A stretch of 64,000 nt of DNA from Candidatus Kaiserbacteria bacterium CG10_big_fil_rev_8_21_14_0_10_47_16 (lineage in GTDB: Bacteria > Patescibacteriota > Minisyncoccia > Phycocordibacterales > UBA918). The notes under the pieces were generated by a model, which ran no database searches, was not told where the DNA came from, and was given only the letters and a program-made list of their open reading frames with translations. Below, in pieces: positions 1 to 59,545 of the stretch. The stretch spans positions 242,797 through 306,796 of the forward strand of contig PFBI01000006.1 of assembly GCA_002773395.1 (NCBI GenBank). The letters run 5' to 3'. The translations under genes were made by a program, and so were the position numbers. The first letter of the stretch is position 1. Each line of letters begins with the position of its first letter.

Positions 1-282
1 CCGTTCTGCGTACTCCAGTGTTGAAGTTGCCCCTTGAAACGCGCCACCGCCATCACGTATGACGAACCTGTCACTGTCTTCGAAATGGTACCCTTGCATA
101 TCAGCCTCATCGCATGGCCGGCGCTCTCTAACGTAGAAATGCTTAGCCAGTATTGCTTCCTGTTCGGGAGTTATCGACATGGTCGCCTCCTTCTGCCAAT
201 CTATCCTTGTTATAGACCTATATCGACATTATCGCAAGTCAGATTGTGAGACCACCACTTCTGCGTTATAGTCTTCTCATCC

Positions 283-343
283 CATCCGTAGCTCAGTTGG
301 TTAGAGCGCAAGGCTTACAATGAGCCGAGGGAAGTGAGTAGTG
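283..343 (+). other. tRNA-like 5' fragment: a 22 nt exact copy of the D-arm of the downstream tRNA, with no T-arm or acceptor 3' strand
   Basis: 'tagctcagttggttagagcgca' at 289-310 is identical to 351-372 of the intact tRNA. The sequence after it does not fold into an anticodon or T arm. Confidence 0.4.
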
Positions 344-344
344 T

Positions 345-418
345 CCGTGTGTAGCTCAGTTGGTTAGAGCGCAGAGCTTATACCTCTGTGGTCCTTGGTT
401 CGAATCCAAGCACACGGA
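345..418 (+). tRNA. tRNA with anticodon UAU (tRNA-Ile, AUA-reading); CCA not encoded
   Basis: Cloverleaf read by hand. Acceptor CCGTGTG pairs with CACACGG; D-stem GCTC/GAGC; anticodon stem CAGAG/CTCTG with loop CTTATAC (T33, anticodon TAT, A37); T-arm CTTGG-TTCGAAT-CCAAG; discriminator A; the 3' end is followed by 'ca', not CCA. Confidence 0.8.
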
Positions 419-454
419 CACTGGGCATTTCCGAACGAGGCGAAACTGTATCGA

Positions 455-497
455 AGATATACCTCTGTGGTCATTGGTTCGCACCACACGAGTATTT
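455..497 (+). repeat. Degenerate direct copy of the tRNA 3' half (anticodon loop to T-arm), att-like
   Basis: 'tatacctctgtggtcattggttcg' at 461-484 matches tRNA positions 379-402 with one mismatch. Flanks are degraded. Confidence 0.45.
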
Positions 498-5511: not shown

Positions 5512-5961
5512 ATGAAGCCATACATTTCACACAAACGCGTCACGTTTGATTTTGATATCCTCGACACCTTCGAGGCGGGTATTTCCCTATTGGGTACTGA
5601 GGTGAAGTCAGTGCGGAATGGCCAAGGCAAACTCGAAGGCGCGCACGTGGTCATTCGTGGCGGTGAAGCCTTCCTCGTAGGTGCATCTATCCCCCCATTT
5701 CAGAAGGCAAACGCTCCAAAAACCTACGATCCAGAACGAACCCGCACACTCCTCCTCTCTCAAAAAGAGCTTGCGCGCCTCGGTACCGAGGGCGAAAAGG
5801 CTGGCTTGACAATAGTGCCAATTAAGTTGTATAATAAAAACAACAAATTGAAGCTTGAAATCGCTATCGCGCGTGGAAAGAAGAAGTACGACAAGCGCGA
5901 ATCCATAAAGGCTCGTGACACGAAGCGCGACATTGATCGCGAGATCAAGCGCGCAGTGTAG
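5512..5961 (+). CDS. smpB: SsrA-binding protein SmpB
   Basis: 'GIsLlGtEVKSvR...G...aYv' core; 149 aa; immediately followed by the tmRNA gene. The track ORF starts at 5380 but the ATG at 5512 fits SmpB length. Confidence 0.85.
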   Translation: MKPYISHKRVTFDFDILDTFEAGISLLGTEVKSVRNGQGKLEGAHVVIRGGEAFLVGASIPPFQKANAPKTYDPERTRTLLLSQKELARLGTEGEKAGLTIVPIKLYNKNNKLKLEIAIARGKKKYDKRESIKARDTKRDIDREIKRAV

Positions 5962-6020: not shown

Positions 6021-6418
6021 GGGGATGACAGGCATCGACGGTTAGTCCCGGTAGTATGTGCAGTGTCGAAGCTGATCGTAACTTCGTTAAAATGCGATCA
6101 TTCGTACGTGCTAAGAATAGCGTACCAAGTCCTTACGCGAACGCGTTTGGATTCGCATTTGCTCGAGCGTAAGTAATTACTGCTCGCTCATGCGACATCA
6201 CCCTTTCTGGTATCCGATACAGATTTGGTGGTGAAATAAAAATCGGACTCGAACACGTTACCCCGTTTCCATAATGTGTTTTAAATTCTAAGGAGACTCG
6301 GGGATGTATGATTTTGTGTGTCTTACACATACATCACTTAAATCAAAGGACACTCTACGCACTGTAGAGTCATGCTAACGACCTAGCTCGGACCCGGGTT
6401 CAACTCCCGGCATCTCCA
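6021..6418 (+). ncRNA. ssrA: tmRNA (ssrA), one-piece, about 398 nt, CCA not encoded
   Basis: The 5' end 'GGGGATGACAGGCATCGACGG' matches the tmRNA consensus GGGGNUGA...UCGACGG. The 3' end 'GGACCCGGGTTCAACTCCCGGCATCTCCA' is a tRNA-Ala-like T-arm and acceptor. The acceptor GGGGATG/CATCTCC contains the G3-U70 pair. The gene sits just downstream of smpB. Confidence 0.85.
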
Positions 6419-6454
6419 CATATGAAAATGCTCCCGTCAGGGAGTTTTTTCATA
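6412..6454 (+). repeat. Left copy of a 43 bp direct repeat, overlapping the tmRNA 3' end (att-like)
   Basis: 'atctccacatatgaaaatgctcccgtcagggagttttttcata' is identical to 7415-7457. It also contains the ssrA terminator hairpin. Confidence 0.8.
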
Positions 6455-7414
6455 TGTGGAGACGTAGAAAAGCACCTGCGTGCTTTTCGTCGGGAGTTGA
6501 ACGGCGGAACATGTTGCAACGCAACGGCGAGCCGCGACCAGCGTTCTTAACGAGCGAATGCGAGTTTAGAAAAAGCGGGTCACGACGGCATCTCCACAGA
6601 ATATGGAAATATATAGAACAATATGGAAGTTTGCTCAGACTGAGTAAGCTTCTTTATTTTGGTATACTCAATTGATGAATAAGGAAACTGCTCTAAATCT
6701 GATCTGGGAATACATGCACTTAAATCACCGACTTGAGAAAGCTGACGCTATTTTGGTGTTGGGAAATCGTGATACAAGAGTTGGTGAATATGCTGCCAAA
6801 CTCTGGCTGGATGGCTGGGCGCCTTACCTTATCTGTGCTGGCTCTGGTGATATCCATAATAATAAACCGGGCAGAGAAAAGTTTAAGGGAACCACTGAAG
6901 CCGAAGTGTTCGCACAGCTAGCAATGGAAATGGGTGTTCCAGAGGAATATATTATTGTAGAAAATAAATCACAAAACACAGGTCAAAATTACGAATTCTC
7001 AATTGAGCTACTCCAGAAGAAAGGTATCGAAGCAAAAAAACTGATTGCTGTTCAAAAACCGTACATGGAGCGCAGGACATATGCGACAGGAAAAGTTTGG
7101 CTACCAGAAGTGGACTTGATAGTGACATCGCCACCCATCTCTATAGAGGATTATCCAAACAAATCAAACAGTGTTGGTGAGCATTGGATTCACGCTCTTG
7201 TTGGAGACCTGCAACGAATAAAAGAATATCCTGCGAAGGGTTTTCAAGTTGAACAAGAGATTCCTGAAGAAGTGTGGGGAGCATATGAGTATCTAGTTGA
7301 ACAAGGCTATACAAATCGTTTGATTAAAGATTAGTTAGAGTCACCACAAATCAACCACCTTTAAAAAGTTAGAACACTCCATCTCAATCAAAGAGGTTCT
7401 AACTTGATACAAAG
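6455..7414 (+). mobile_element. About 1 kb ssrA-associated islet remnant bounded by 43 bp direct repeats and carrying one cargo gene (DUF218)
   Basis: Direct repeats of the tmRNA 3' end flank the segment. A third 13 nt partial att copy 'cggcatctccaca' lies at 6586-6598. The interior is AT-richer than the flanks. No integrase is present. Confidence 0.55.
6672..7334 (+). CDS. DUF218 (YdcF/ElyC/SanA-like) domain protein
   Basis: 'ADAILVLGNRD...' followed by 'LICAGSG' resembles the YdcF-family DUF218 core. It is the only gene inside the repeat-bounded islet. Confidence 0.6.
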   Translation: MMNKETALNLIWEYMHLNHRLEKADAILVLGNRDTRVGEYAAKLWLDGWAPYLICAGSGDIHNNKPGREKFKGTTEAEVFAQLAMEMGVPEEYIIVENKSQNTGQNYEFSIELLQKKGIEAKKLIAVQKPYMERRTYATGKVWLPEVDLIVTSPPISIEDYPNKSNSVGEHWIHALVGDLQRIKEYPAKGFQVEQEIPEEVWGAYEYLVEQGYTNRLIKD

Positions 7415-7457
7415 ATCTCCACATATGAAAATGCTCCCGTCAGGGAGTTTTTTCATA
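7415..7457 (+). repeat. Right copy of the 43 bp direct repeat
   Basis: Exact match to 6412-6454. Confidence 0.8.
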
Positions 7458-7534
7458 AATACACCCTGCTTTTCAACGCTACACGTAGAGAGATACTCCA
7501 AATAGTATATAATGCAAAACTAAATACCATATAT

Positions 7535-7930
7535 ATGCATCAAGGAAATTGGAAATGTAGTTCATGCGGAGGAGCGATAACAGAACTCCCGTTTCAGCCA
7601 CGCAGTGAATCGGGACTTACCTGTCGCGCGTGTTATAGCAAACAAAAAGGCGGCGGGAGCGGAGCGGCTCCCGAAGCATCCGGGATACCAGAAACGCCCG
7701 GAGCACCTGAAGTACTCGACATACCCGATCATGCTGAATTAGCAGGAGAACCTGCACCTGCTCCTGAAGATGACTTTGACGGGGCCGTTCCGGCGACGAA
7801 TGAACGTCCTAAATTTGAAGGTAACTGGACCTGCGCTGGATGCGGAGGAGCAATCACCTCACTACCTTTCACTCCACGTGATACGAGCAATCTAAAATGT
7901 CTTGATTGTTTCAAAAGCAGTAAGCGATAA
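7535..7930 (+). CDS. Small protein with two copies of a C4 zinc-ribbon motif (W-C-x2-CGGAIT-x-LPF-x-PR...C-x2-C)
   Basis: 'GNWKCSSCGGAITELPFQPRSESGLTCRACY' and 'GNWTCAGCGGAITSLPFTPRDTSNLKCLDCF' are separated by an acidic Pro/Ala-rich linker. Confidence 0.5.
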   Translation: MHQGNWKCSSCGGAITELPFQPRSESGLTCRACYSKQKGGGSGAAPEASGIPETPGAPEVLDIPDHAELAGEPAPAPEDDFDGAVPATNERPKFEGNWTCAGCGGAITSLPFTPRDTSNLKCLDCFKSSKR

Positions 7931-7960
7931 TTACTACCTACTCACACACATGAAAAAACT

Positions 7961-7990
7961 CCCGTACGGGAGTTTTTTCATGTGTCTTGT
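7961..7990. terminator. Palindromic bidirectional terminator, a variant of the ssrA terminator hairpin
   Basis: 'catgaaaaaactcccgtacgggagttttttcatg'. The same architecture as 6421-6452 but with a different stem. Confidence 0.6.
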
Positions 7991-8418
7991 TATGTAATTG
8001 TCTGAGGTGCAATAAGTAATTTCAATGTTTCTCGATTCTTCCAGATCAGATACAGGTTGAGCAGTAACATGAGGTCAGCGAGGACGGCGCCTGCTGTGAA
8101 TAATCCCCCATCAAGCACGAGGTGGAACGCGACAATGTTGAACACAATAGGTAGTTCGAGTAAGGCAGCGAGAGCTTCTCGCTTCGTCCAAAGCGCTATC
8201 AAAGCAATAATGTGAACCGCGGCCATCATATAGCTAATGTACACAGCAAGGCCATCAATCAATTGGATAAATGCAAATGCTTCATCAGTGTTATAAAGGT
8301 CACGCGTTGCTTCACCAAGTAATCCTGTTGCGCCGACAACTGGTAAGAGGATAACGAGCGAAAAGAGAACTTTGGCCACAATATGTAGATATTTTTTCAT
8401 ATACCAAAATCTTATCAT
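7990..8418 (-). CDS. Hypothetical membrane protein (about 4 TM helices); alternative start at 8400
   Basis: Hydrophobic helices throughout. Both 8418 and 8400 are ATG. Confidence 0.45.
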   Translation of the reverse strand: MIRFWYMKKYLHIVAKVLFSLVILLPVVGATGLLGEATRDLYNTDEAFAFIQLIDGLAVYISYMMAAVHIIALIALWTKREALAALLELPIVFNIVAFHLVLDGGLFTAGAVLADLMLLLNLYLIWKNRETLKLLIAPQTIT

Positions 8419-8994: not shown

Positions 8995-10017
8995 CTACTT
9001 CTTGATCGAAAGAGCGTCACGGACTGCCTCGTACCGCCAAAGGAGATCCTGGATGACCTCAGGCGGCGGCTCTGCAGAATACGGAGGCCAACCCGACTTA
9101 TCGTATGGAGCTTTTGCTTTCGCTTCACCAAGCTCCTTAACCCAGTCAGCGCAGCACTCTTCGTACCACCTCCGAACAGGGTCCTTGTCATAGCTCCGCC
9201 CCCCCGAATCGGTGAGACGGAGCTCATCAGGAGAAATAGAGTCGGCGATAACAAACATGCCTTCCTCCGTCAGAGCACCCTCGATCTTCCCATCACAAAG
9301 ATCGAACCCGACGCTCCGGAAGAGCGTCTTGAGGTAGATGGCCGCGCGAGCCACCACCTTGTAGATATCCTGCAGCTGACCGAGAGTGAGCCCAGCAAGA
9401 CGAGCTGCCTCCTCATCAGAGACATACGTATCGGCCGCCTGGTGCTTAGTGCTGCACTCGACGAATGGGTGCTGAAAACGCATCCCCGGAACGAGGTCTT
9501 CGTCCAAAGACAGTAGGCACTCGATTGCAGCACGGTCGACCGCGCCACCTTCAACACGACTACAGAACTTCTTTGTCGCCACGAAGCGAAAAAGAAACTC
9601 CAGTGGCAACAGTCGCCCGAACGCCTGCGGATAGTAGACATCGAGCTCAGGGATGTTGAATGGCGTTACTGCAATGCGCTGTTCATCAAGGCGTTCGCGG
9701 AAGTGTGTCCTGAAATCGGCTGCATCAAGCTTCTCGAATAGAATCGCTGCAATGCTGCACCGCACTGCCCCGAGACCAGTAAACGTTACCGGGATAGGTC
9801 CTCGGTCGAAGACCGAGACGCGGTCCGAAAAGTTGAATTCCATTCCCTTTACATCGCTGTAGAAGACGTCTTTCGAAGATCCTACTCGTGATATTTGCAC
9901 TGTTCCCTCCTCAGGGTTGTCACCCGACTCTTTTGAGCCAGGTGGGGGTTCATTTCCGCACGTGTTATACCTTAAAATTTCAAGAAATGCACGTTTGGTA
10001 ACCATAACGAAAAACAC
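8995..10017 (-). CDS. purC: Phosphoribosylaminoimidazole-succinocarboxamide synthase (PurC/SAICAR synthetase); start uncertain, possibly ATG 10005
   Basis: 'SDRVSVFDRGPIPVTFTGLGAVRCSIAAILFEKL' matches PurC 'TDRiSAFDvvlp..IpgKGavl.qlSaf.FekL'. 'LPLEFLFRF' matches 'iPlEvVvRn'. 'IADSISPDELRL' matches 'lADEvlTPDSSR'. Confidence 0.75.
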   Translation of the reverse strand: MFFVMVTKRAFLEILRYNTCGNEPPPGSKESGDNPEEGTVQISRVGSSKDVFYSDVKGMEFNFSDRVSVFDRGPIPVTFTGLGAVRCSIAAILFEKLDAADFRTHFRERLDEQRIAVTPFNIPELDVYYPQAFGRLLPLEFLFRFVATKKFCSRVEGGAVDRAAIECLLSLDEDLVPGMRFQHPFVECSTKHQAADTYVSDEEAARLAGLTLGQLQDIYKVVARAAIYLKTLFRSVGFDLCDGKIEGALTEEGMFVIADSISPDELRLTDSGGRSYDKDPVRRWYEECCADWVKELGEAKAKAPYDKSGWPPYSAEPPPEVIQDLLWRYEAVRDALSIKK

Positions 10018-10048
10018 GGTATTTCTCCGCGGATCTTTTCTTTTATAA

Positions 10049-10477
10049 ATGTCTGTTATACTTTTTCCTGTTATGTCAAAAAAGAAACCGCCTTCAGTAA
10101 AGGTTAAGAAGTCGTCAGCAGGGCTCGGACTCTACGCGATGGAAGATATTAAGAAAGAAGCATTCATTATTGAATACATCGGCGAGAAAATTACAACCGA
10201 CGAGAGCGACCGCCGTGGCGGAAAGTACCTCTTCACGCTCAGTAAGGACTACGTCATCGATGGAAAAGGTCGCACCAATATCGCGAGATACATCAACCAT
10301 TCATGCCGTCCCAACAGCGAAGTTGAAATTGACGAAGATAAGTGGACCATTAGCGTCTACGCAAAGAAAAATATCAAGGCAGGCGACGAACTCACCTATG
10401 ACTACGGGAAAGAGTACTGGAATGAACACATCAAGCCATATGGCTGTAAATGTGCGAAATGTACTGAAAAGAAATAA
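10049..10477 (+). CDS. SET-domain protein (putative protein-lysine methyltransferase)
   Basis: Canonical SET motifs 'NHSCRPN' and 'ELTYDY', plus a C-terminal Cys cluster (post-SET-like 'CKCAKC'). Confidence 0.8.
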   Translation: MSVILFPVMSKKKPPSVKVKKSSAGLGLYAMEDIKKEAFIIEYIGEKITTDESDRRGGKYLFTLSKDYVIDGKGRTNIARYINHSCRPNSEVEIDEDKWTISVYAKKNIKAGDELTYDYGKEYWNEHIKPYGCKCAKCTEKK

Positions 10478-10576
10478 AGAAATGGCCGCGTAATGCGGCT
10501 ATTTTAAAAGAAGGCCACTTATCCACTCTTTCCACATGCGTCCCCATTTTGGGGTAAAAACCGAAAAATATGCTGC

Positions 10577-12037
10577 GTGATACAATGGGGATTACCTATG
10601 GCGGACACGAGACAAAATATACAAAAAACAGCTTCAGCTTCGAGTCCTGAAGGGACTCGAAGCCGCCTCTTGCGTACTCCCCCGCACAACACTGACGCTG
10701 AACGCGCACTCATTGGTGCCATCATTCTCAAACCAGAAGTGATGCACGATGTATCGGTCACGGTATATCCGGAAAGTTTTTACGCAGACAAACACCGCGA
10801 AATTTTCCGCGCGATTCTCGATCTCTTTATGAAGGGAGATCCAATTGATATTCTCTCAATCACCAACAAGCTCAAGAGCCGTGAACTCCTCGAACGAACC
10901 GGCGGTGCCAGTTACCTCACCGAACTTGTGGAAACGGTCCCTGCTGCGGGTAACGGTCTCTACTACGCGGAGCTTGTACAAAACAAATCAATTCTACGCG
11001 GACTCATCAACGCAGCGAACGACATTGCAGAACTCGGCTACTCAGACCCTGAGAACGTAGAGGAAGCGATGGATACTGCGGAGAAAAAAGTCTACCAAGT
11101 CACCAACGCACCGACGACACAGAAGTTCACTCCAATTGGTTCTTCTCTCACCGAAGCGTGGCAGCGCTTTGAAGAGTTGAACTCTGGGAAAGAAGTACAC
11201 CGTGGTATTCCAACCGGATTTAAAGCGCTCGATGACTTCCTCTCAGGACTCCAACGTTCTGACCTCGTCATTCTTGCTGCACGTCCCTCTATGGGTAAGA
11301 CGACCTTCGCGCTCGACATTGCGCGCAACGCCGCGCTTCGTTATGGAAAGTCAGTGGGTATTTTCTCTCTCGAAATGAGTGACCAGCAGCTCGTCGATCG
11401 TATGCTCGCTGCAGAAGCGCAGGTGGATTCATGGAAACTCCGCACCGGAAAGCTTTCAAATGACCAAGAATACGAAGCGGTGCAGAGTGCTATGGCGCGT
11501 CTCGCGGAAGCACCGATTCACATCGATGACCAACCGGGAAACAATATTCTTAAGATGCGTTCTTCAGCGCGACGTCTCAAGAACGAGAGCGGACTCGACC
11601 TTCTCATTGTCGACTACCTTCAGCTCATGAGTCCAACGAGTACCAAGGCGAGTGATTCAATGGTGCAGCAGGTGACTGAGATTTCTCGTTCACTCAAAAT
11701 CCTCGCGCGTGAACTCGATGTACCGGTACTCGCCCTCTCACAGCTCTCGCGTGCGGTGGAACAACGTGGCGGAAAACCACGACTCTCTGACCTTCGTGAC
11801 TCTGGTTCTATTGAGCAGGATGCCGACGTGGTGATGTTCATCCACCGAGAAGACAAGATGAACAAAGACCAAGAATCAGACCGTCCAAACATTGCCGAAA
11901 TTCTTGTTGAGAAACACCGTAACGGACCAATTGGAAGTGCGGAACTCTACTTCGACAGCAAGCACGTTCGCTTCCTCAGTCTCGACACCCATCACCAAGG
12001 TATGGATTCAAATGCTTCTGCTGATGATGATTTTTAA
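10577..12037 (+). CDS. dnaB: Replicative DNA helicase DnaB
   Basis: N-terminal DnaB domain ('ERALIGAIIL'), Walker A 'ARPSMGKTTFALDIA', and downstream H2-H4 motifs. Confidence 0.9.
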   Translation: MIQWGLPMADTRQNIQKTASASSPEGTRSRLLRTPPHNTDAERALIGAIILKPEVMHDVSVTVYPESFYADKHREIFRAILDLFMKGDPIDILSITNKLKSRELLERTGGASYLTELVETVPAAGNGLYYAELVQNKSILRGLINAANDIAELGYSDPENVEEAMDTAEKKVYQVTNAPTTQKFTPIGSSLTEAWQRFEELNSGKEVHRGIPTGFKALDDFLSGLQRSDLVILAARPSMGKTTFALDIARNAALRYGKSVGIFSLEMSDQQLVDRMLAAEAQVDSWKLRTGKLSNDQEYEAVQSAMARLAEAPIHIDDQPGNNILKMRSSARRLKNESGLDLLIVDYLQLMSPTSTKASDSMVQQVTEISRSLKILARELDVPVLALSQLSRAVEQRGGKPRLSDLRDSGSIEQDADVVMFIHREDKMNKDQESDRPNIAEILVEKHRNGPIGSAELYFDSKHVRFLSLDTHHQGMDSNASADDDF

Positions 12038-19190: not shown

Positions 19191-19217
19191 ATTCTAGGTT
19201 AGTCTGACTAACCTAGA
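19191..19217. promoter_or_regulatory. 27 bp palindromic element copy 2 (identical to 559-585)
   Basis: 'ttctaggttagtctgactaacctagaa' is a 13+1+13 perfect palindrome located between the stop of gene 19226-19699 and a GC hairpin. Confidence 0.5.
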
Positions 19218-37878: not shown

Positions 37879-37894
37879 AAAGCTTCAACGTCAG

Positions 37895-37982
37895 GTTTCT
37901 AAGCTCACTACGTTCGCTAAGAACCTCCTGTCCGGGCTCGCAATCGCCGCATTAGGAATAGCGGCGATATAGCTCCGCCGGG
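37895..37982. repeat. Intergenic repeat family member A
   Basis: Shares 'c.ctacg.t.g...ctaag.ac.tcct.tccgggctcgc' and 'cattaggaatag...gctccg' with the copies at 45.7, 49.7 and 57.2 kb. Confidence 0.5.
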
Positions 37983-38015
37983 TGAAACTAAAAAATATGA
38001 AGCAGTTCATATTTT

Positions 38016-39530
38016 TTAAAGTTTCACCCTATATTGCAGCGCTTCTAGAATATGGGGTGGTTCGATATTTTCCTTCTCATCAAGATCCGCTATTGTCTGC
38101 GCCACCTTGATCACTCGGTGGTAGCTGCGGGGCGAGAGCTTGAGTTTCGTTGCTGACATCCGTAAAAGGTCACGAACTTCGTCGGACAATACTATCTTTT
38201 CATCAATGACTCGCGCAGACATTTCTGCGTTCGCGGTAATGCCTCTGCCCTCAAACCGTTTCTGTTGTCGCGTTCGTGCGGCCGCTATCTGTTCTCGAGC
38301 GCGAGCAGTTTCTCCCGTGCGTGCATTCTCACTCGTCATCGTATCAAAATCAACATGTGGCACTGGAAGCCACAAATCAATACGGTCCAGAATCGGGCCT
38401 GATATTTTCTGTTTATAGGTCTCAAGCATTTGGTCGGTGTAATTGCCGCCATCATCTCCTCCGCGCGTTGGATTCATCGCTGCTACGAGCATGACGTCTG
38501 CAGGAAAGAGTACGGTGGAGTGAACACGTGAAATAGAAACGACTCGATCTTCAAGTGGTTGGCGGAGTGCGTCAATCGAGCGCCGTTCAAATTCAGGAAA
38601 CTCGTCGAGAAACAGTACGCCTCTATGTGCGAGTGTTACTTCCCCTGGTTTCGGGTGAGTGCCACCCCCAACAAGCGACGTGTGCGATGCGGTGTGATGG
38701 GGACTTCGAAACGGCGGCTTCCGCGAAATACCTTCTTCGAGTGTTCCTGCCACGGAATGGATCGCTGTTACTTCGAGTGCCTCCTCGGTAGTAAGTGGTG
38801 GAAGAATACCTTGGAGCGCACGCGCCAGCATTGTCTTTCCTGTCCCCGGTGGTCCAACGAAGATAATATTATGTCGCCCTGCTGCAGCGATAAGCAGTCC
38901 ACGCTTCGCGCTTTCCTGTCCGCGGATATCTTCAAGACGAATGATACCTTCATCCCAGAGTGTTTCGATTTGTGTTGGTGATTGCGAAGGAATGGTTGCA
39001 TGATCTTCCCGTGTTGCATCAATGTGTCTGATAACAGCAAGTAGATTTTCAGCAGGTGTCACGGTAATCCCCGGGATCAATGCTGATTCTTCTGCATTCT
39101 CCATTGGCACAATGACTTCAGTGAAGCCTGCGCGCACTGCCGCTTGCACAACAGGTAGCACGCCCCGTACTCCGCGGAGCGTTCCATCGAGCGCCAACTC
39201 ACCGACCAATAACGTGCGGTCAATTGATACCGTAATTTCTTCGGCAGCAATGAGATACGCAATCGCAATCGGTAAGTCAAAAAGCGGCCCCTCTTTCTTT
39301 AAATCTGCAGGTGCAAGTGAGACAACAATTTTATGATTTTCACTCTTTGGTGACGTAAACCCAGAATTTTTGATAGCGCTACTCACACGATCCTTCGCTT
39401 CTTCCACCGCCTTGCCCGCAAGCCCAACAAGCTGGAACGAATGCAGACCTCGTGAGAGGTCTGCTTCTACCGTGACGATATCTCCCCGAAGAATTCCTGG
39501 CTGTGCGGCAAAAACTCGGGCAACTGACAT
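38016..39530 (-). CDS. comM: Mg-chelatase-like AAA+ protein YifB/ComM
   Basis: Lon-like N-domain, Walker A 'FVGPPGTGKTMLA', Walker B 'VLFLDEFPEF', a ChlI-like C-terminus. Confidence 0.85.
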   Translation of the reverse strand: MSVARVFAAQPGILRGDIVTVEADLSRGLHSFQLVGLAGKAVEEAKDRVSSAIKNSGFTSPKSENHKIVVSLAPADLKKEGPLFDLPIAIAYLIAAEEITVSIDRTLLVGELALDGTLRGVRGVLPVVQAAVRAGFTEVIVPMENAEESALIPGITVTPAENLLAVIRHIDATREDHATIPSQSPTQIETLWDEGIIRLEDIRGQESAKRGLLIAAAGRHNIIFVGPPGTGKTMLARALQGILPPLTTEEALEVTAIHSVAGTLEEGISRKPPFRSPHHTASHTSLVGGGTHPKPGEVTLAHRGVLFLDEFPEFERRSIDALRQPLEDRVVSISRVHSTVLFPADVMLVAAMNPTRGGDDGGNYTDQMLETYKQKISGPILDRIDLWLPVPHVDFDTMTSENARTGETARAREQIAAARTRQQKRFEGRGITANAEMSARVIDEKIVLSDEVRDLLRMSATKLKLSPRSYHRVIKVAQTIADLDEKENIEPPHILEALQYRVKL

Positions 39531-45640: not shown

Positions 45641-45813
45641 TCTTCTTCCTTTTGAAGCGGAAGGGTCAAGTTGCTAAGTATAATTCTTCGCTACGCTTGA
45701 ATTCTACTAAGCACTTCCTCCCCGGGCTCGCCTGTTTTGTTTCTAGAAACGAAACAAAACACGGCTCCGCCTCTTACCCACTTCACGAAAGCAAAGCAGT
45801 TTGCTTTCTAAAA
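45641..45813. repeat. Intergenic repeat family member B (directly downstream of the rplE stop, where the spc operon breaks)
   Basis: The 69 nt core 'gggtcaagttgctaagtataattcttcgctacgcttgaattctactaagcacttcctccccgggctcgc' differs from copy C (57202-57270) by 3 nt. It also contains the hairpin 'gttttgtttc-taga-aacgaaacaaaac'. Confidence 0.65.
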
Positions 45814-57054: not shown

Positions 57055-57201
57055 CGTGTTCTCTCTTATAACTCAAGGTACGTTCCTTTGCAGTATTGCG
57101 TATATGAGGAGGGTTGTAAAGGAAAAGGCCAACAGCGGAGCTGTTGGCCTTTTCCTTGGTTGCATGGTTTTTTTATTCTTCCTTGAAGTTTATATCCTTG
57201 A

Positions 57202-57313
57202 GGGTCAAGTTGCTAAGTACAATTCTGCGCTACGCTTGAATTCTACTAAGCACTTCCTCCCCGGCCTCGCTGGTTCGGGACATTAGGAATAGTCCCTCAC
57301 ATCGCTCCGGCTC
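57202..57313. repeat. Intergenic repeat family member C (upstream of the fusA terminator)
   Basis: Its 69 nt core is nearly identical to copy B. It shares 'cattaggaatag' with copy A. Confidence 0.65.
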
Positions 57314-57373
57314 ATAAAAGATATTGAGGTAGTATAAACAAAAAACCATCCCCGGAGGGATGGTTTTTTGTTT

Positions 57374-59545
57374 TTACTCTTCAACCTCAATATCTTTTAT
57401 GCCGCGTTCTTTCTTGATCTCCATTGCGATGTTTGGTGGCACTACTGCGTAGTGGTCAAATTCCATCACCATGTTTGCACGACCTTCAGTCATTGAGCGA
57501 AGTGTCGTTGTGTAGCCAAACATTTCTGAGAGTGGGACTTTCGCATTGATAACCTTCACCATATCGCGGTCTTCCATTCCTTCTACGAGACCACGCTTTG
57601 ATGAGATGTTTCCGTTTACGTCACCCATGAATTTCTCAGGAGTCGTCACTTCAATCTTCATTACCGGCTCAAGGAGCACTGCGTTTGCTCGCTTGGCAGC
57701 AATCTTGAACGCATTGATAGCGGCAAGTTTGAAGGCAATTTCAGAAGAGTCCACATCATGGAAACTACCGTCGTATAGTTCGACAGTCACATCTTCCATT
57801 TTGTATCCTGCAACGAGACCTCGTCCCATCGCTTCTTTCGCTCCCTTCATGACCGCAGGAATGTATTCCCCAGGAATCGCACCTCCCTTGATACTGTTTA
57901 CGAATTCGAAGTGATCTTCACGTGTTACGTTTTTCGCAACTTCTTCACCTTCTGCAAGCGGCTTCATTGGGCGGATACGAATCTTCACGTGACCGTACTG
58001 TCCGCGACCTCCTGACTGCTTTACATACTTGTATTCTGCCTCTGCTTCGTTCTGAATCGTTTCTCGGTATGCTACCTGCGGCTTTCCTGTTGATGCTTCT
58101 ACACCGAACTCTCGCTTCATACGGTCCACAAGAATTTCGAGATGAAGCTCACCCATACCTGCAATAATAGTCTCGAGTGTTTCATCGTCGGTAGAAACCT
58201 TGAATGTTGGGTCCTCGTCAGAAAGTTTCTTGAGGGCCATACCCATCTTTTCTTGGTCATTCTTTGTCTTTGGTTCAATACGCATTGCAACCACTGGTTC
58301 TGGGAAGACGATTTGTTCAAGAATAATCGGTGCATCTTCAGTACAGAGTGTGTGTGAAGTCTTCACATCTTTGAGACCTACACCGGCTGCAATTTCTCCT
58401 GCGTATACTTCCTCCACTTCTTCACGCTTATCAGCCTGAAGACGTACGATACGTCCAAGACGCTCCTTCTCGCCTGTTGAAGCGTTGAAGATGTAGCTTC
58501 CTGACTTTACCGTACCTGAGTACACACGGAAGAAGGCGAGTTGCCCAACGAATGGGTCAGTTTGGAGTTTGAACGCGAGCGCACAAAACGGTGACGTGTC
58601 AGATGCGATACGAGTTTCTTCTGCGTCAGTCTTTGGATTTGTTCCTAATACTGGCGGAAGATCGAGTGGCGATGGGAGGTAGTCCACCACTGCGTCGAGA
58701 ATACGCTGTACACCAACGTTCTTGAGTGCAGAACCAGTCATCACAGGGAAGATGGCATTCGCAATCACCGCCTTTCGGAGTGTTGCTTGGAGCTCATCGT
58801 AGCTTGGTTCATTTCCCTCAAGGTACGCACTCATTTGTTCGTCGTCGTTTTCAACGATACGTTCAACGAGTTCACCGTGGTACTTCTCTGCTTCAGCTCG
58901 GAGTTCATCAGGAATTTCGTGCTCAAGTACGTTCATTCCCATATCACCCTCAAATGTGTATGCCTTCATCTTGAGAAGGTCGATAACACCCTTCAGGTTT
59001 TCTTCAGATCCCCATGGGAGTTGGAATCGTACTGCCTTTGGAGAGAGTCGCTTGATGATTGTTTGGTATGACCGTTCATAGTCAGCACCGGTACGATCCA
59101 TCTTGTTGATGAAACAAATACGCGGCACTCCGGCTTCGTCAGCGTATCGCCAGTTCGTTTCAGATTGTGGCTCTACACCCGCAACACCGTCAAACACAAC
59201 AATCGCTCCGTCGAGTACACGCATCGATCGCTTTACTTCAGCAGTAAAGTCGATGTGTCCCGGAGTATCGATGATGTTGAACGTGAATTTGTGTTCTTTT
59301 GAGGTACGGTCTGGGTTGAGTGATGGCGTCCAATCACATGAAATCGCAGCAGCCGTAATCGTGATACCACGTTCACGCTCCTGATCCATCCAGTCAGTAA
59401 CTGTTTCTCCATCATGCACCTCACCAATCTTGTGACTCATTCCGGTATAGAAAAGCACGCGCTCTGATGTCGTGGTTTTTCCTGCGTCTACGTGCGCAAC
59501 AATACCAAAGTTGCGAAGTCTCTCGAGTGGATATTTTCGAGCCAT
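57374..59545 (-). CDS. fusA: Elongation factor G
   Basis: '[19 protein letters not shown]', 723 aa. Confidence 0.95.

Follow-up and report, generated by a model that had tools for sequence, protein, structure and literature searches.

Small integrase-less gene cassettes recur at the 3′ end of ssrA in Paceibacteria, with a DUF218 cassette in a Kaiserbacteria genome as one member

The window analyzed here is a stretch of 64,000 nucleotides of chromosomal DNA from Candidatus Kaiserbacteria bacterium CG10_big_fil_rev_8_21_14_0_10_47_16 (contig PFBI01000006.1, forward strand), in which the transfer-messenger RNA (tmRNA) gene, ssrA, is followed by an insert that carries a DUF218/YdcF-family gene between copies of the tmRNA 3′ end. 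A reading made from the sequence alone had taken this insert for the decayed remnant of at least two integration events. Having compared it with ~130 related loci (designated by L-numbers and including 84 Paceibacteria loci fetched through SmpB and 42 metagenome loci), we conclude that it looks like a compact integrase-less DUF218 gene cassette accompanied by a small structured element, which we call M, and not like a decayed prophage. The element types that make up the insert recur downstream of ssrA in related Paceibacteria, some of them as arrays, and the DUF218 unit represents, in intact form, a type of mini-cassette without integrase that is found repeatedly stacked at this site. We assign a probability of roughly 60% to the reading that positions 6421–7949 are accessory DNA that accumulated at the 3′ end of ssrA through successive recombination events at a core corresponding to the tmRNA 3′ terminus.

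The tmRNA gene occupies 6021–6419 of the + strand, directly 3′ of the gene for its partner, smpB (5512–5961, + strand; Pfam SmpB, 1.7e-47). ARAGORN called it with the tag AKNSVPSPYANAFGFAFARA, and the Rfam tmRNA model RF00023 scored 111.7 bits over 6021–6421; the gene ends in ...GGCATCTCCAC, with CCA not encoded. Its last nucleotides form core A (ATCTCCACA in the window; consensus (C/T)T(C/T)CCAC), which together with the terminator hairpin T1 (6421–6454) makes up the first copy of an exact 43-nt direct repeat (6412–6454, + strand). The second copy (7415–7457, + strand), recovered by a repeat search at a spacing of 1003 nt, consists of core A″ and terminator T1′, and the latter serves as the terminator of the DUF218 gene. 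This 43-mer is the longest exact direct repeat within the 64 kb. Copy 1 is also the left half of a longer palindrome (6413–6435 with 6440–6462) that takes in the tmRNA acceptor strand in antisense (6455–6462); copy 2 is without this right-hand extension, and upstream of it a weak similarity to the tmRNA T-loop continues (GGTTCTAACT, ~7394–7403). The 13-mer CGGCATCTCCACA, found exactly at 6408–6420 and 6586–6598, has no other site in the window with at most one mismatch (shuffled mean, 0.12 sites; two reached in 1 of 100 shuffles). A third copy of core and hairpin, 77% identical to the 43-mer, lies at 7940–7982, between a zinc-finger gene and the convergent gene h142. All displaced cores (6586–6598, 7415–7423 and a degenerate one at ~7941–7949) are on the + strand, and the tmRNA gene itself is intact. 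G+C content falls to 39.7% between 6599 and 7414, compared with 48.2% for the window, which places this interval in the lowest 0.2% of same-size windows. The exact repeat, the AT-richer DNA that it encloses and the DUF218 gene had all been described in the sequence-only reading, and our searches bear out each of them. We rejected the idea that the hairpin is simply a widespread terminator because its motif occurs at only three sites in the 64 kb (6422, 7425 and 7950).

The DUF218 gene (6675–7334, + strand; 219 amino acids; Pfam PF02698, 5.8e-16) is bracketed by two conserved elements. On its 5′ side lies a cassette leader, Ld (6599–6672, + strand), composed of an AT-rich palindromic box, a terminator-like hairpin (~6624–6658) and a −10-like TATACT; the hairpin has two G·U pairs on the + strand, and its arms show compensatory changes in the alignment. 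On its 3′ side lies a cassette-end element, C80 (7341–7423, + strand; ACCACAAATCAAC..GAACACTCCATCTCAATCAAAGAGGTTCTAACTTGATACAAAG; nhmmer, 7.5e-17), which ends in core A″ (ATCTCCACA, 7415–7423). C80 is strongly conserved in sequence, with a short optional GTGGAG...CTCCAC stem discerned by eye only. Searches with nhmmer recovered Ld in L026 (three copies), in L025 and in many metagenome loci directly 3′ of C80 and its core, and recovered C80 three to four times each in L026 and L037 and once in L025. C80 exists in a short and a long form, as many copies (L037 13853–13994 and L025 9787–9930 among them) carry a ~55-nt hairpin-containing insertion, CACCACMAGGGCATTTCCG...CTAGGTC, between GAGGTTTT and AACTTGG.

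Homologues of the DUF218 protein, 78–84% identical, occur in Paceibacteria in varied contexts. This is the same range as that of SmpB, and the family is not alien to this clade. Within 8 kb of ssrA, the 84 related loci contain no DUF218 homologue. Elsewhere, a homologue of 78% identity (L105 4827–5657; GCA_035714785.1) directly follows tRNA-Asn(GTT) and a terminator, with no Ld or C80.

The same leader and end element bound many other genes. A metagenome scan with an exact 21-base C80 pattern yielded the 42 metagenome loci, and within every mapped locus C80 and Ld lie on one strand, with as many as six C80 copies in a run (L260; five in L261), and the spacing of the copies gives a cassette size of 0.56–1.7 kb. 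In all fetched stretches that include a tmRNA gene (L254, L255, L261/L269, L272/L294, L282 and L295) the C80 and Ld copies start just 3′ of it and in its orientation, as they also do in L025 and L026; in L291 the array follows tRNA-Gln. A cassette ends in ...GGACACTCCATTTCAATCAAAGAGGTTCTAACTTGGTACAAAGTCTTCCAC, and what comes 3′ of that end is Ld, or a terminator and M, or a terminator and a degenerate anti-acceptor/anti-T stretch. The order in L026 is tmRNA–Ld–MORN open reading frame (ORF)–C80/core–T–M–Ld–(Gp49 toxin + helix-turn-helix (HTH) antitoxin)–C80/core–Ld–HD(−)–C80, in which T is a terminator and the HD gene is inverted within its cassette. The window order, T1–M–Ld–DUF218–C80/core–T1′, is a cyclic permutation of these parts, the L026 repeat being core plus Ld (a block of 83 nt at 86% identity). 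The DUF218 cassette itself recurs in the array of another organism, as L296 contains an 82%-identical homologue within the order Ld2–DUF218–C80–Ld–Gp49. Other cargo comprises Gp49/HTH pairs (three arrays: L026, L260 and L261), EamA, a phosphodiesterase, patatin, HD, a GDSL lipase and a methylase with MamI. The gene for the Gp49 (HigB-like) toxin is the most recurrent, appearing in four arrays (L026 13999–14606, L260 3482–4086, L261 2091–2393 and L296 1050–1355), with the adjoining HTH antitoxin gene confirmed in L026 and L260.

This recurrence bears directly on the possibility that the islet is what remains of at least two full-size islands or prophages that entered ssrA and then lost nearly everything, integrases included. 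Such an origin would account for the direct orientation of the tmRNA-end copies, the low G+C content of the segment and the relatives that bear recombinase-encoding elements at the same site (described below), and ssrA is the most enriched integration target (PMC4383910). Independent decay, however, would not repeatedly leave behind one compact unit, with a leader, one or two intact genes and an 80-nt end element, measuring 0.56–1.7 kb and found in dozens of loci in runs of up to six. Moreover, the cargo ORFs are intact, we saw no pseudogene debris, and the 13-nt copy is part of a structured element that is conserved. We therefore consider the leftover of larger islands an unlikely explanation. 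Of the earlier claim of a decayed remnant of two or more integration events, the plurality of events stands, but the decay does not, given an intact DUF218 unit between a conserved Ld and a conserved C80.

The structured element in question is M (6455–6598, + strand), which spans ~145 nt and scores 125.7 bits with our covariance model, R1. It opens with an anti-acceptor segment, TGTGGAGA (6455–6462), and a hairpin, hp1 (6467–6488), continues with an anti-T-arm segment, CGGGAGTTGAAC (6491–6502), that is an inverted copy of the T-arm and with two further helical arms, and closes with a degenerate T-arm and core A′, CGGCATCTCCACA (6586–6598). The sequence-only reading had singled out these last 13 nucleotides as a third, partial attachment (att) copy; the copy is exact, but as the 3′ terminus of M it is no relic confined to this genome. 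At least 15 of the 84 Paceibacteria loci fetched through SmpB have the same layout 3′ of ssrA (terminator, anti-acceptor, 9-bp hairpin, anti-T-arm, two helical arms, then degenerate T-arm and tmRNA 3′ terminus), and ssrA-linked M spans distantly related Paceibacteria, whose SmpB proteins are 51–84% identical to that of the window. In L021/L022 (SmpB 79% identical) window positions 6089–6600 align as one contiguous block at 72% identity, and in L020 (SmpB 84% identical) a match to 6426–6579 lies ~740 nt past the tmRNA end. The tmRNA gene of L021 contains a ~130-nt insertion relative to that of the window (at about 7020–7148) and is not called by ARAGORN.

We built R1 from six M copies, using a hand-built structure followed by realignment to the covariance model; MAFFT with RNAalifold recovered hp1 only. 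The model returned 28 hits at E<1e-6, and ssrA-adjacent hits came from more than 20 loci. In the 28-hit alignment, 88.4% of cells were paired, compared with 57% after shuffling and 31–45% with partners slid, and 31 of the 32 pairs showed a compensatory change, figures that are somewhat inflated by an alignment fitted to the R1 model. On the sense strand, G·U pairs outnumbered A·C (41 versus 22). The antisense segment tracks the tmRNA of its own locus: the longest complementary run averaged 9.1 against its own tmRNA and 5.6 against the others (Wilcoxon p=0.001, n=14), and variant tmRNAs are matched in L041, L061, L064 and L230. In L230 the antisense follows the variant acceptor CCACTTCCA, whereas the element's own 3′ copy does not.

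M has no counterpart in Rfam. Only tmRNA and tRNA passed in the window, a permissive scan of 6400–8100 gave chance-level hits, and nothing was returned for L025, L026 or L037; nor did we find a description of an M-like motif in the literature. We rejected a phage origin: the M pattern had no hits in viral contigs, and a 16-mer from M had 22 viral hits, none of which the covariance model confirmed and which we therefore regard as chance; matches to the tmRNA end in viral contigs were numerous but not clade-specific. We also dropped, though without rigorous exclusion, the possibilities that M is a minus-strand tRNA-like gene (a partner for the T-stem is lacking), a primer-binding site of retroviral type (what the antisense follows is the ACA of the genome rather than CCA), an intron of group I or II (M is far too small and has no core), or an IS200/605 omega-RNA or IS110 bridge RNA (there is no Rfam or sequence support, and no enzyme nearby).

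M is a dispersed family rather than a speciality of ssrA. The window holds three further copies of its core, all on the − strand: one at 37884–38014 (R1, 68.8 bits, E ~1e-20) directly after the stop codon of the ORF at 38016–39530 (504 amino acids), one at 45662–45808 (39.1 bits) after rplE, which encodes ribosomal protein L5, and one at 57180–57358 (25.4 bits, E ~1e-5 to 5e-7) after a 723-amino-acid ORF (57374–59545). Each lies on the gene-sense strand between the stop codon of a protein gene and a terminator. In every M copy of the window, what follows the first hairpin is a segment in antisense to the end of the gene upstream, and the DNA 3′ of M repeats the 3′ end of that gene in diverged form. 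After the rplE copy, for example, an L5-like C terminus can be read in frame (LPLQKEEEVK*), with the actual rplE product ending in LPLQKPTE*; the tails of L5 homologues, which we checked for the ancestral C terminus, vary (PTE, PVEEAK, EEKETA and EEKDA among them). The 45662 and 57180 copies have an exact stretch of 37 nt in common. Among related loci, M follows tRNA-Ile in L230 (3715–3851) and, in L104 (6460–6523, − strand), a tRNA-like 3′ end that lies at the end of the contig and is not called as a gene by ARAGORN. M thus behaves like a tiny element in gene 3′ ends, with the end of the gene on either side of it.

A different reading of these features holds that tmRNA-like termini are kept for an RNA function, with M and the cassette ends processed from read-through transcripts by tRNA-processing enzymes and the antisense regulating maturation of the tmRNA 3′ end. 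There is a precedent in the RtT repeats downstream of E. coli tyrT, which tRNA-processing enzymes release from read-through transcripts and which form a structured unit of ~170 nt directly after a tRNA-type gene, ending in a copy of the gene's 3′ terminus. M resembles RtT in this architecture; unlike RtT, it also follows protein genes and tRNAs, with an antisense segment directed at the particular gene upstream of it, and the two are similar neither in sequence nor by Rfam. The covariation-supported structure, the excess of G·U on the sense strand, the tracking of the local tmRNA, the behavior of the L230 copy and the terminator found 3′ of M in many loci would all suit an RNA that is made and used. 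The antisense segments, however, come only after the T-run of the ssrA terminator, so that terminated tmRNA transcripts lack them, and an RNA function leaves unexplained the DUF218 insertion, the arrays and the inverted cargo (the HD gene of L026). As an account of the whole insert this reading appears very improbable, although an RNA function for M alone could be compatible with DNA insertion for the cassette.

Beyond the second repeat copy lies a third inserted segment, consisting of a promoter region (7458–7534) and the zinc-finger gene (7535–7930, + strand; double treble-clef; Pfam zf_Tbcl_2, 5.3e-15). By eye, 7458–7534 resembles the right flank of the L020 variable region; blastn-short at E≤0.05 found no match to this promoter region outside the window. 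The segment closes with a degenerate core, CTCACACACA, followed by T3 (together 7940–7985), a perfect-palindrome terminator common to h142 (7990–8418, − strand), which is convergent with the zinc-finger gene. In L092 an orthologue of h142 (63% identity) directly follows the ssrA terminator, in L228 the SET gene does so, and in L025 a single cassette ends in ...TTTACACACA and a hairpin nearly identical to T3. Because of these three arrangements, we read the degenerate core and T3 as probably the oldest displaced ssrA end, with T3 as the ancestral ssrA terminator. L092 (ssrA–T–h142) and L228 (ssrA–T–SET) also represent "empty" states in which the insert is absent at ssrA, in agreement with the earlier proposal that the ssrA-end copies mark integration at a classic hotspot.

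These boundaries suggest how the locus may have been assembled. The first segment would be T1 and M, ending in A′ (6586–6598); the second, a self-contained cassette of Ld (with its terminator and promoter), DUF218 and C80 with core A″ (6599–7423); and the third, T1′, the zinc-finger gene and the degenerate core (7424–7949), followed by T3. Cassettes would move as circles through site-specific recombination supplied in trans. Recombination of a circle [T1–M–A′–Ld–DUF218–C80–A″] with a resident ssrA–core–T1 site would place the 43-nt repeat on both sides of segments 1 and 2, and the empty site would then have been ssrA–core–T1 joined to AATACACC. An alternative that would fit equally well is insertion of the cassette at A′ after an insertion of M that had duplicated core and T1. 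With either order, each incoming element would regenerate the tmRNA 3′ end and bring both a terminator for ssrA and a promoter for its own cargo. The likeliest enzyme would be a large serine recombinase of the type whose gene overlaps the 3′ end of ssrA in other Paceibacteria.

Such a gene, on the reverse strand, is present in eight of the SmpB-fetched loci. It is full length (522–563 amino acids) in five, with Resolvase, Recombinase and Zn_ribbon_recom domains in L023, L043, L079 and L084 and with Resolvase and Zn_ribbon_recom in L065; L098, L045 and L102 gave tblastn or partial matches. The 3′ ends of these genes overlap the ssrA 3′ end or lie ~100 nt away. Those of L023 (9168–10799), L043 (8777–10468), L079 (8850–10514), L084 (8734–10314) and L102 (8986–9939), all on the − strand, end inside the tmRNA gene on the opposite strand, such that the att core falls within both genes; in L102 the T-loop and acceptor of the tmRNA, read in antisense, supply the final codons of the recombinase gene (...CGEGRN*). 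In L065 a ~150-nt insert separates the tmRNA gene from a second copy of the tmRNA end (about 9063–9073), which falls, by its coordinates, inside the recombinase ORF (9011–10579), an arrangement consistent with very small elements using the same ssrA site. No tyrosine-integrase family was recurrent at the ssrA of relatives.

Several observations weigh against assembly by serial recombination at the tmRNA-end core. As had been noted from the sequence, no integrase remains: Pfam found no integrase or recombinase among 20 window ORFs, only the DUF218 and zinc-finger ORFs lie between 6421 and 7949, another ten window ORFs of integrase size proved to be housekeeping or unrelated genes, and tblastn with the serine-recombinase fragment of L102 gave no match to the window. 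No recombinase appeared among the 25 commonest Pfam families (76 ORFs) of the array loci either. A search of related genomes for an integrase at ssrA, as had been suggested, succeeded in finding the serine recombinases, but in loci without M and C80, which makes the link between enzyme and cassette circumstantial. An identical SmpB protein is encoded on 11 contigs of the same organism, each 100% identical to the window here, and no empty-site or circular-junction variant was seen among them, which leaves mobility in this lineage conjectural; the same locus is also found, identical, in GCA_009991995.1 and several metagenomes. Short contigs that break inside the repeat do so at k-mer limits, an assembly effect that we discounted as evidence of excision. 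Serine integrases normally leave a very short shared core, and blocks of identity as long as 43 nt in the window and 83 nt in L026 are explained at least equally well by homologous recombination. T1 shares 100% identity with T1′, whereas the T-arm part at copy 2 has decayed, a combination that requires a recent event or gene conversion.

The last two of these points could be met without any site-specific recombination, by homologous recombination or gene conversion among the numerous, almost identical short elements of the locus (core plus T, core plus Ld, and C80), or if the ssrA terminator had been duplicated locally. For a serine-recombinase core, identity blocks of 43 nt and, in L026, of 83 nt (86%) are long; crossovers at different shared segments would be expected to produce cyclic permutations such as those of the window and L026; and perfect identity of T1 and T1′ beside decayed flanks suggests conversion. 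Homologous exchange nevertheless leaves unexplained why arrays start at the tmRNA 3′ end wherever the tmRNA gene was fetched, why a core resembling the tmRNA terminus stands at every cassette end and why serine-recombinase elements occupy the same site in other genomes, and it would still require a mechanism that first created cassettes with such ends. As a complete explanation it thus seems rather unlikely, and we favor serial recombination at the tmRNA-terminus core.

Among known systems, the closest is that of the serine-recombinase ssrA islands of Dehalococcoides and their cis-mobilizable satellites. In that genus, tandem genomic islands at ssrA are bounded by a 20-bp ssrA repeat (McMurdie et al. 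2011, PMC3146451), a ~540-amino-acid serine recombinase, DsiB, is encoded next to attL with insertion in the T-loop, and islands lacking an integrase were interpreted as cis-mobilizable elements acquired by accretion (PMC3146451). The Paceibacteria loci likewise have tandem inserts 3′ of an ssrA present in one copy, with directly repeated ssrA 3′ ends as their boundaries (three segments in the window), extra conserved sequence beside each repeat (here C80, 5′ of each core), a reverse-strand large serine recombinase at ssrA (here in the relatives L023, L043, L079, L084 and L065), some inserts without an integration module, and insertion in or near the T-loop (TCAA|TTCC is where identity begins in the displaced copy of M). 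They differ from Dehalococcoides in that the units are 0.56–1.7 kb with one or two genes in dense same-strand runs, in having a conserved 80-nt end element and a leader with terminator and promoter, in that no recombinase was seen in any cassette-bearing locus or at the window ssrA, in the host, a member of the candidate phyla radiation (CPR), and in shared identity that runs past the tmRNA end into the terminator. The window islet would thus be, at best, an integrase-less, cis-mobilizable relative of the Dehalococcoides type.

In organization, the arrays also resemble those of integrons: small, mostly single-gene units with a recurring boundary element extend from one fixed anchor site, the cargo is diverse and includes toxin–antitoxin pairs, and the same cassette is found at different positions in different arrays. 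Same-strand arrays are seen in the relatives, the window having a single Ld/C80 cassette. Unlike integrons, however, these loci have no IntI-type tyrosine recombinase beside the anchor, which is the ssrA 3′ end with smpB and ftsH as neighbors; C80 is conserved in sequence and not, like attC sites, in the structure of an imperfect palindrome alone; and the cassettes have their own promoter-like leader. Integron membership is not supported, and the likeness is one of organization only. As in the tDNA islands cataloged by Islander (PMC4383910), an intact tmRNA gene and displaced 3′ fragments in direct orientation bound the insert, and empty sites exist (L092 and L228), with no same-species empty site among the 11 contigs; unlike those islands, for which an integrase inside the island is required (PMC4383910), the insert has none. 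Prochlorococcus tycheposons at tRNA genes similarly build a variable island of flexible genes by repeated use of a tDNA, but they are multi-gene elements with their own integrases or transposases (bioRxiv 10.1101/2020.12.28.424599).

A broader interpretation, to which we give somewhat less than even odds, is that Paceibacteria possess an undescribed, ssrA-anchored, integron-like cassette system and, alongside it, a new class of structured element of ~130–190 nt, namely M. The system may consist of small promoter-bearing cassettes with a ~80-nt end element that a recombinase encoded elsewhere, perhaps one like DsiB, stacks at the tmRNA 3′ end; we found no description of a CPR ssrA cassette system in the literature. 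The M class may sit at the 3′ ends of tmRNA, tRNA and protein genes, be followed by a copy of the gene end and carry a guide-like segment complementary to its target, which, if true, would imply either base-pairing-directed targeting or a role in RNA 3′-end biology; M may thus point to a new RNA-level or guide-dependent mechanism at gene 3′ ends. CPR (Patescibacteria) genomes are tiny, and little is understood of the ways in which they acquire and reshuffle accessory genes. A cassette platform at the essential ssrA would, if real, offer a concrete route for gene flux, and the cargo seen includes toxin–antitoxin pairs, a restriction–modification system, lipases, transporters and DUF218. Serine recombinases whose natural attB is defined and lies in a universal gene could also be of interest for genome engineering.

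Around the insert, the gene order is ftsH(−), smpB, ssrA, DUF218, zinc-finger, two hypothetical genes (−), SAICAR synthetase (−), SET and dnaB. In L227 (2242–2625) and L228 (2712–3089) a gene of the 23S_rRNA_IVP/bAvd family stands between smpB and ssrA. Near the start of the window (281–495), tRNA-Ile(TAT) at 345–419 is preceded by a pseudo-copy of its 5′ half (23 nt exact, 288–310 = 351–373) and followed by one of its 3′ half (~460–495, ATACCTCTGTGGTCATTGGTTCG...), and these half-gene pseudo-copies on both sides suggest recombination or integration at this gene as well; the same tRNA-Ile is on the opposite strand relative to smpB in L019 and L102. Finally, an exact 27-nt palindromic sequence, TTCTAGGTTAGTCTGACTAACCTAGA, occurs in intergenic DNA at 559–585 and 19191–19217, 18.6 kb apart, and may be an element resembling repetitive extragenic palindromes (REP-like).

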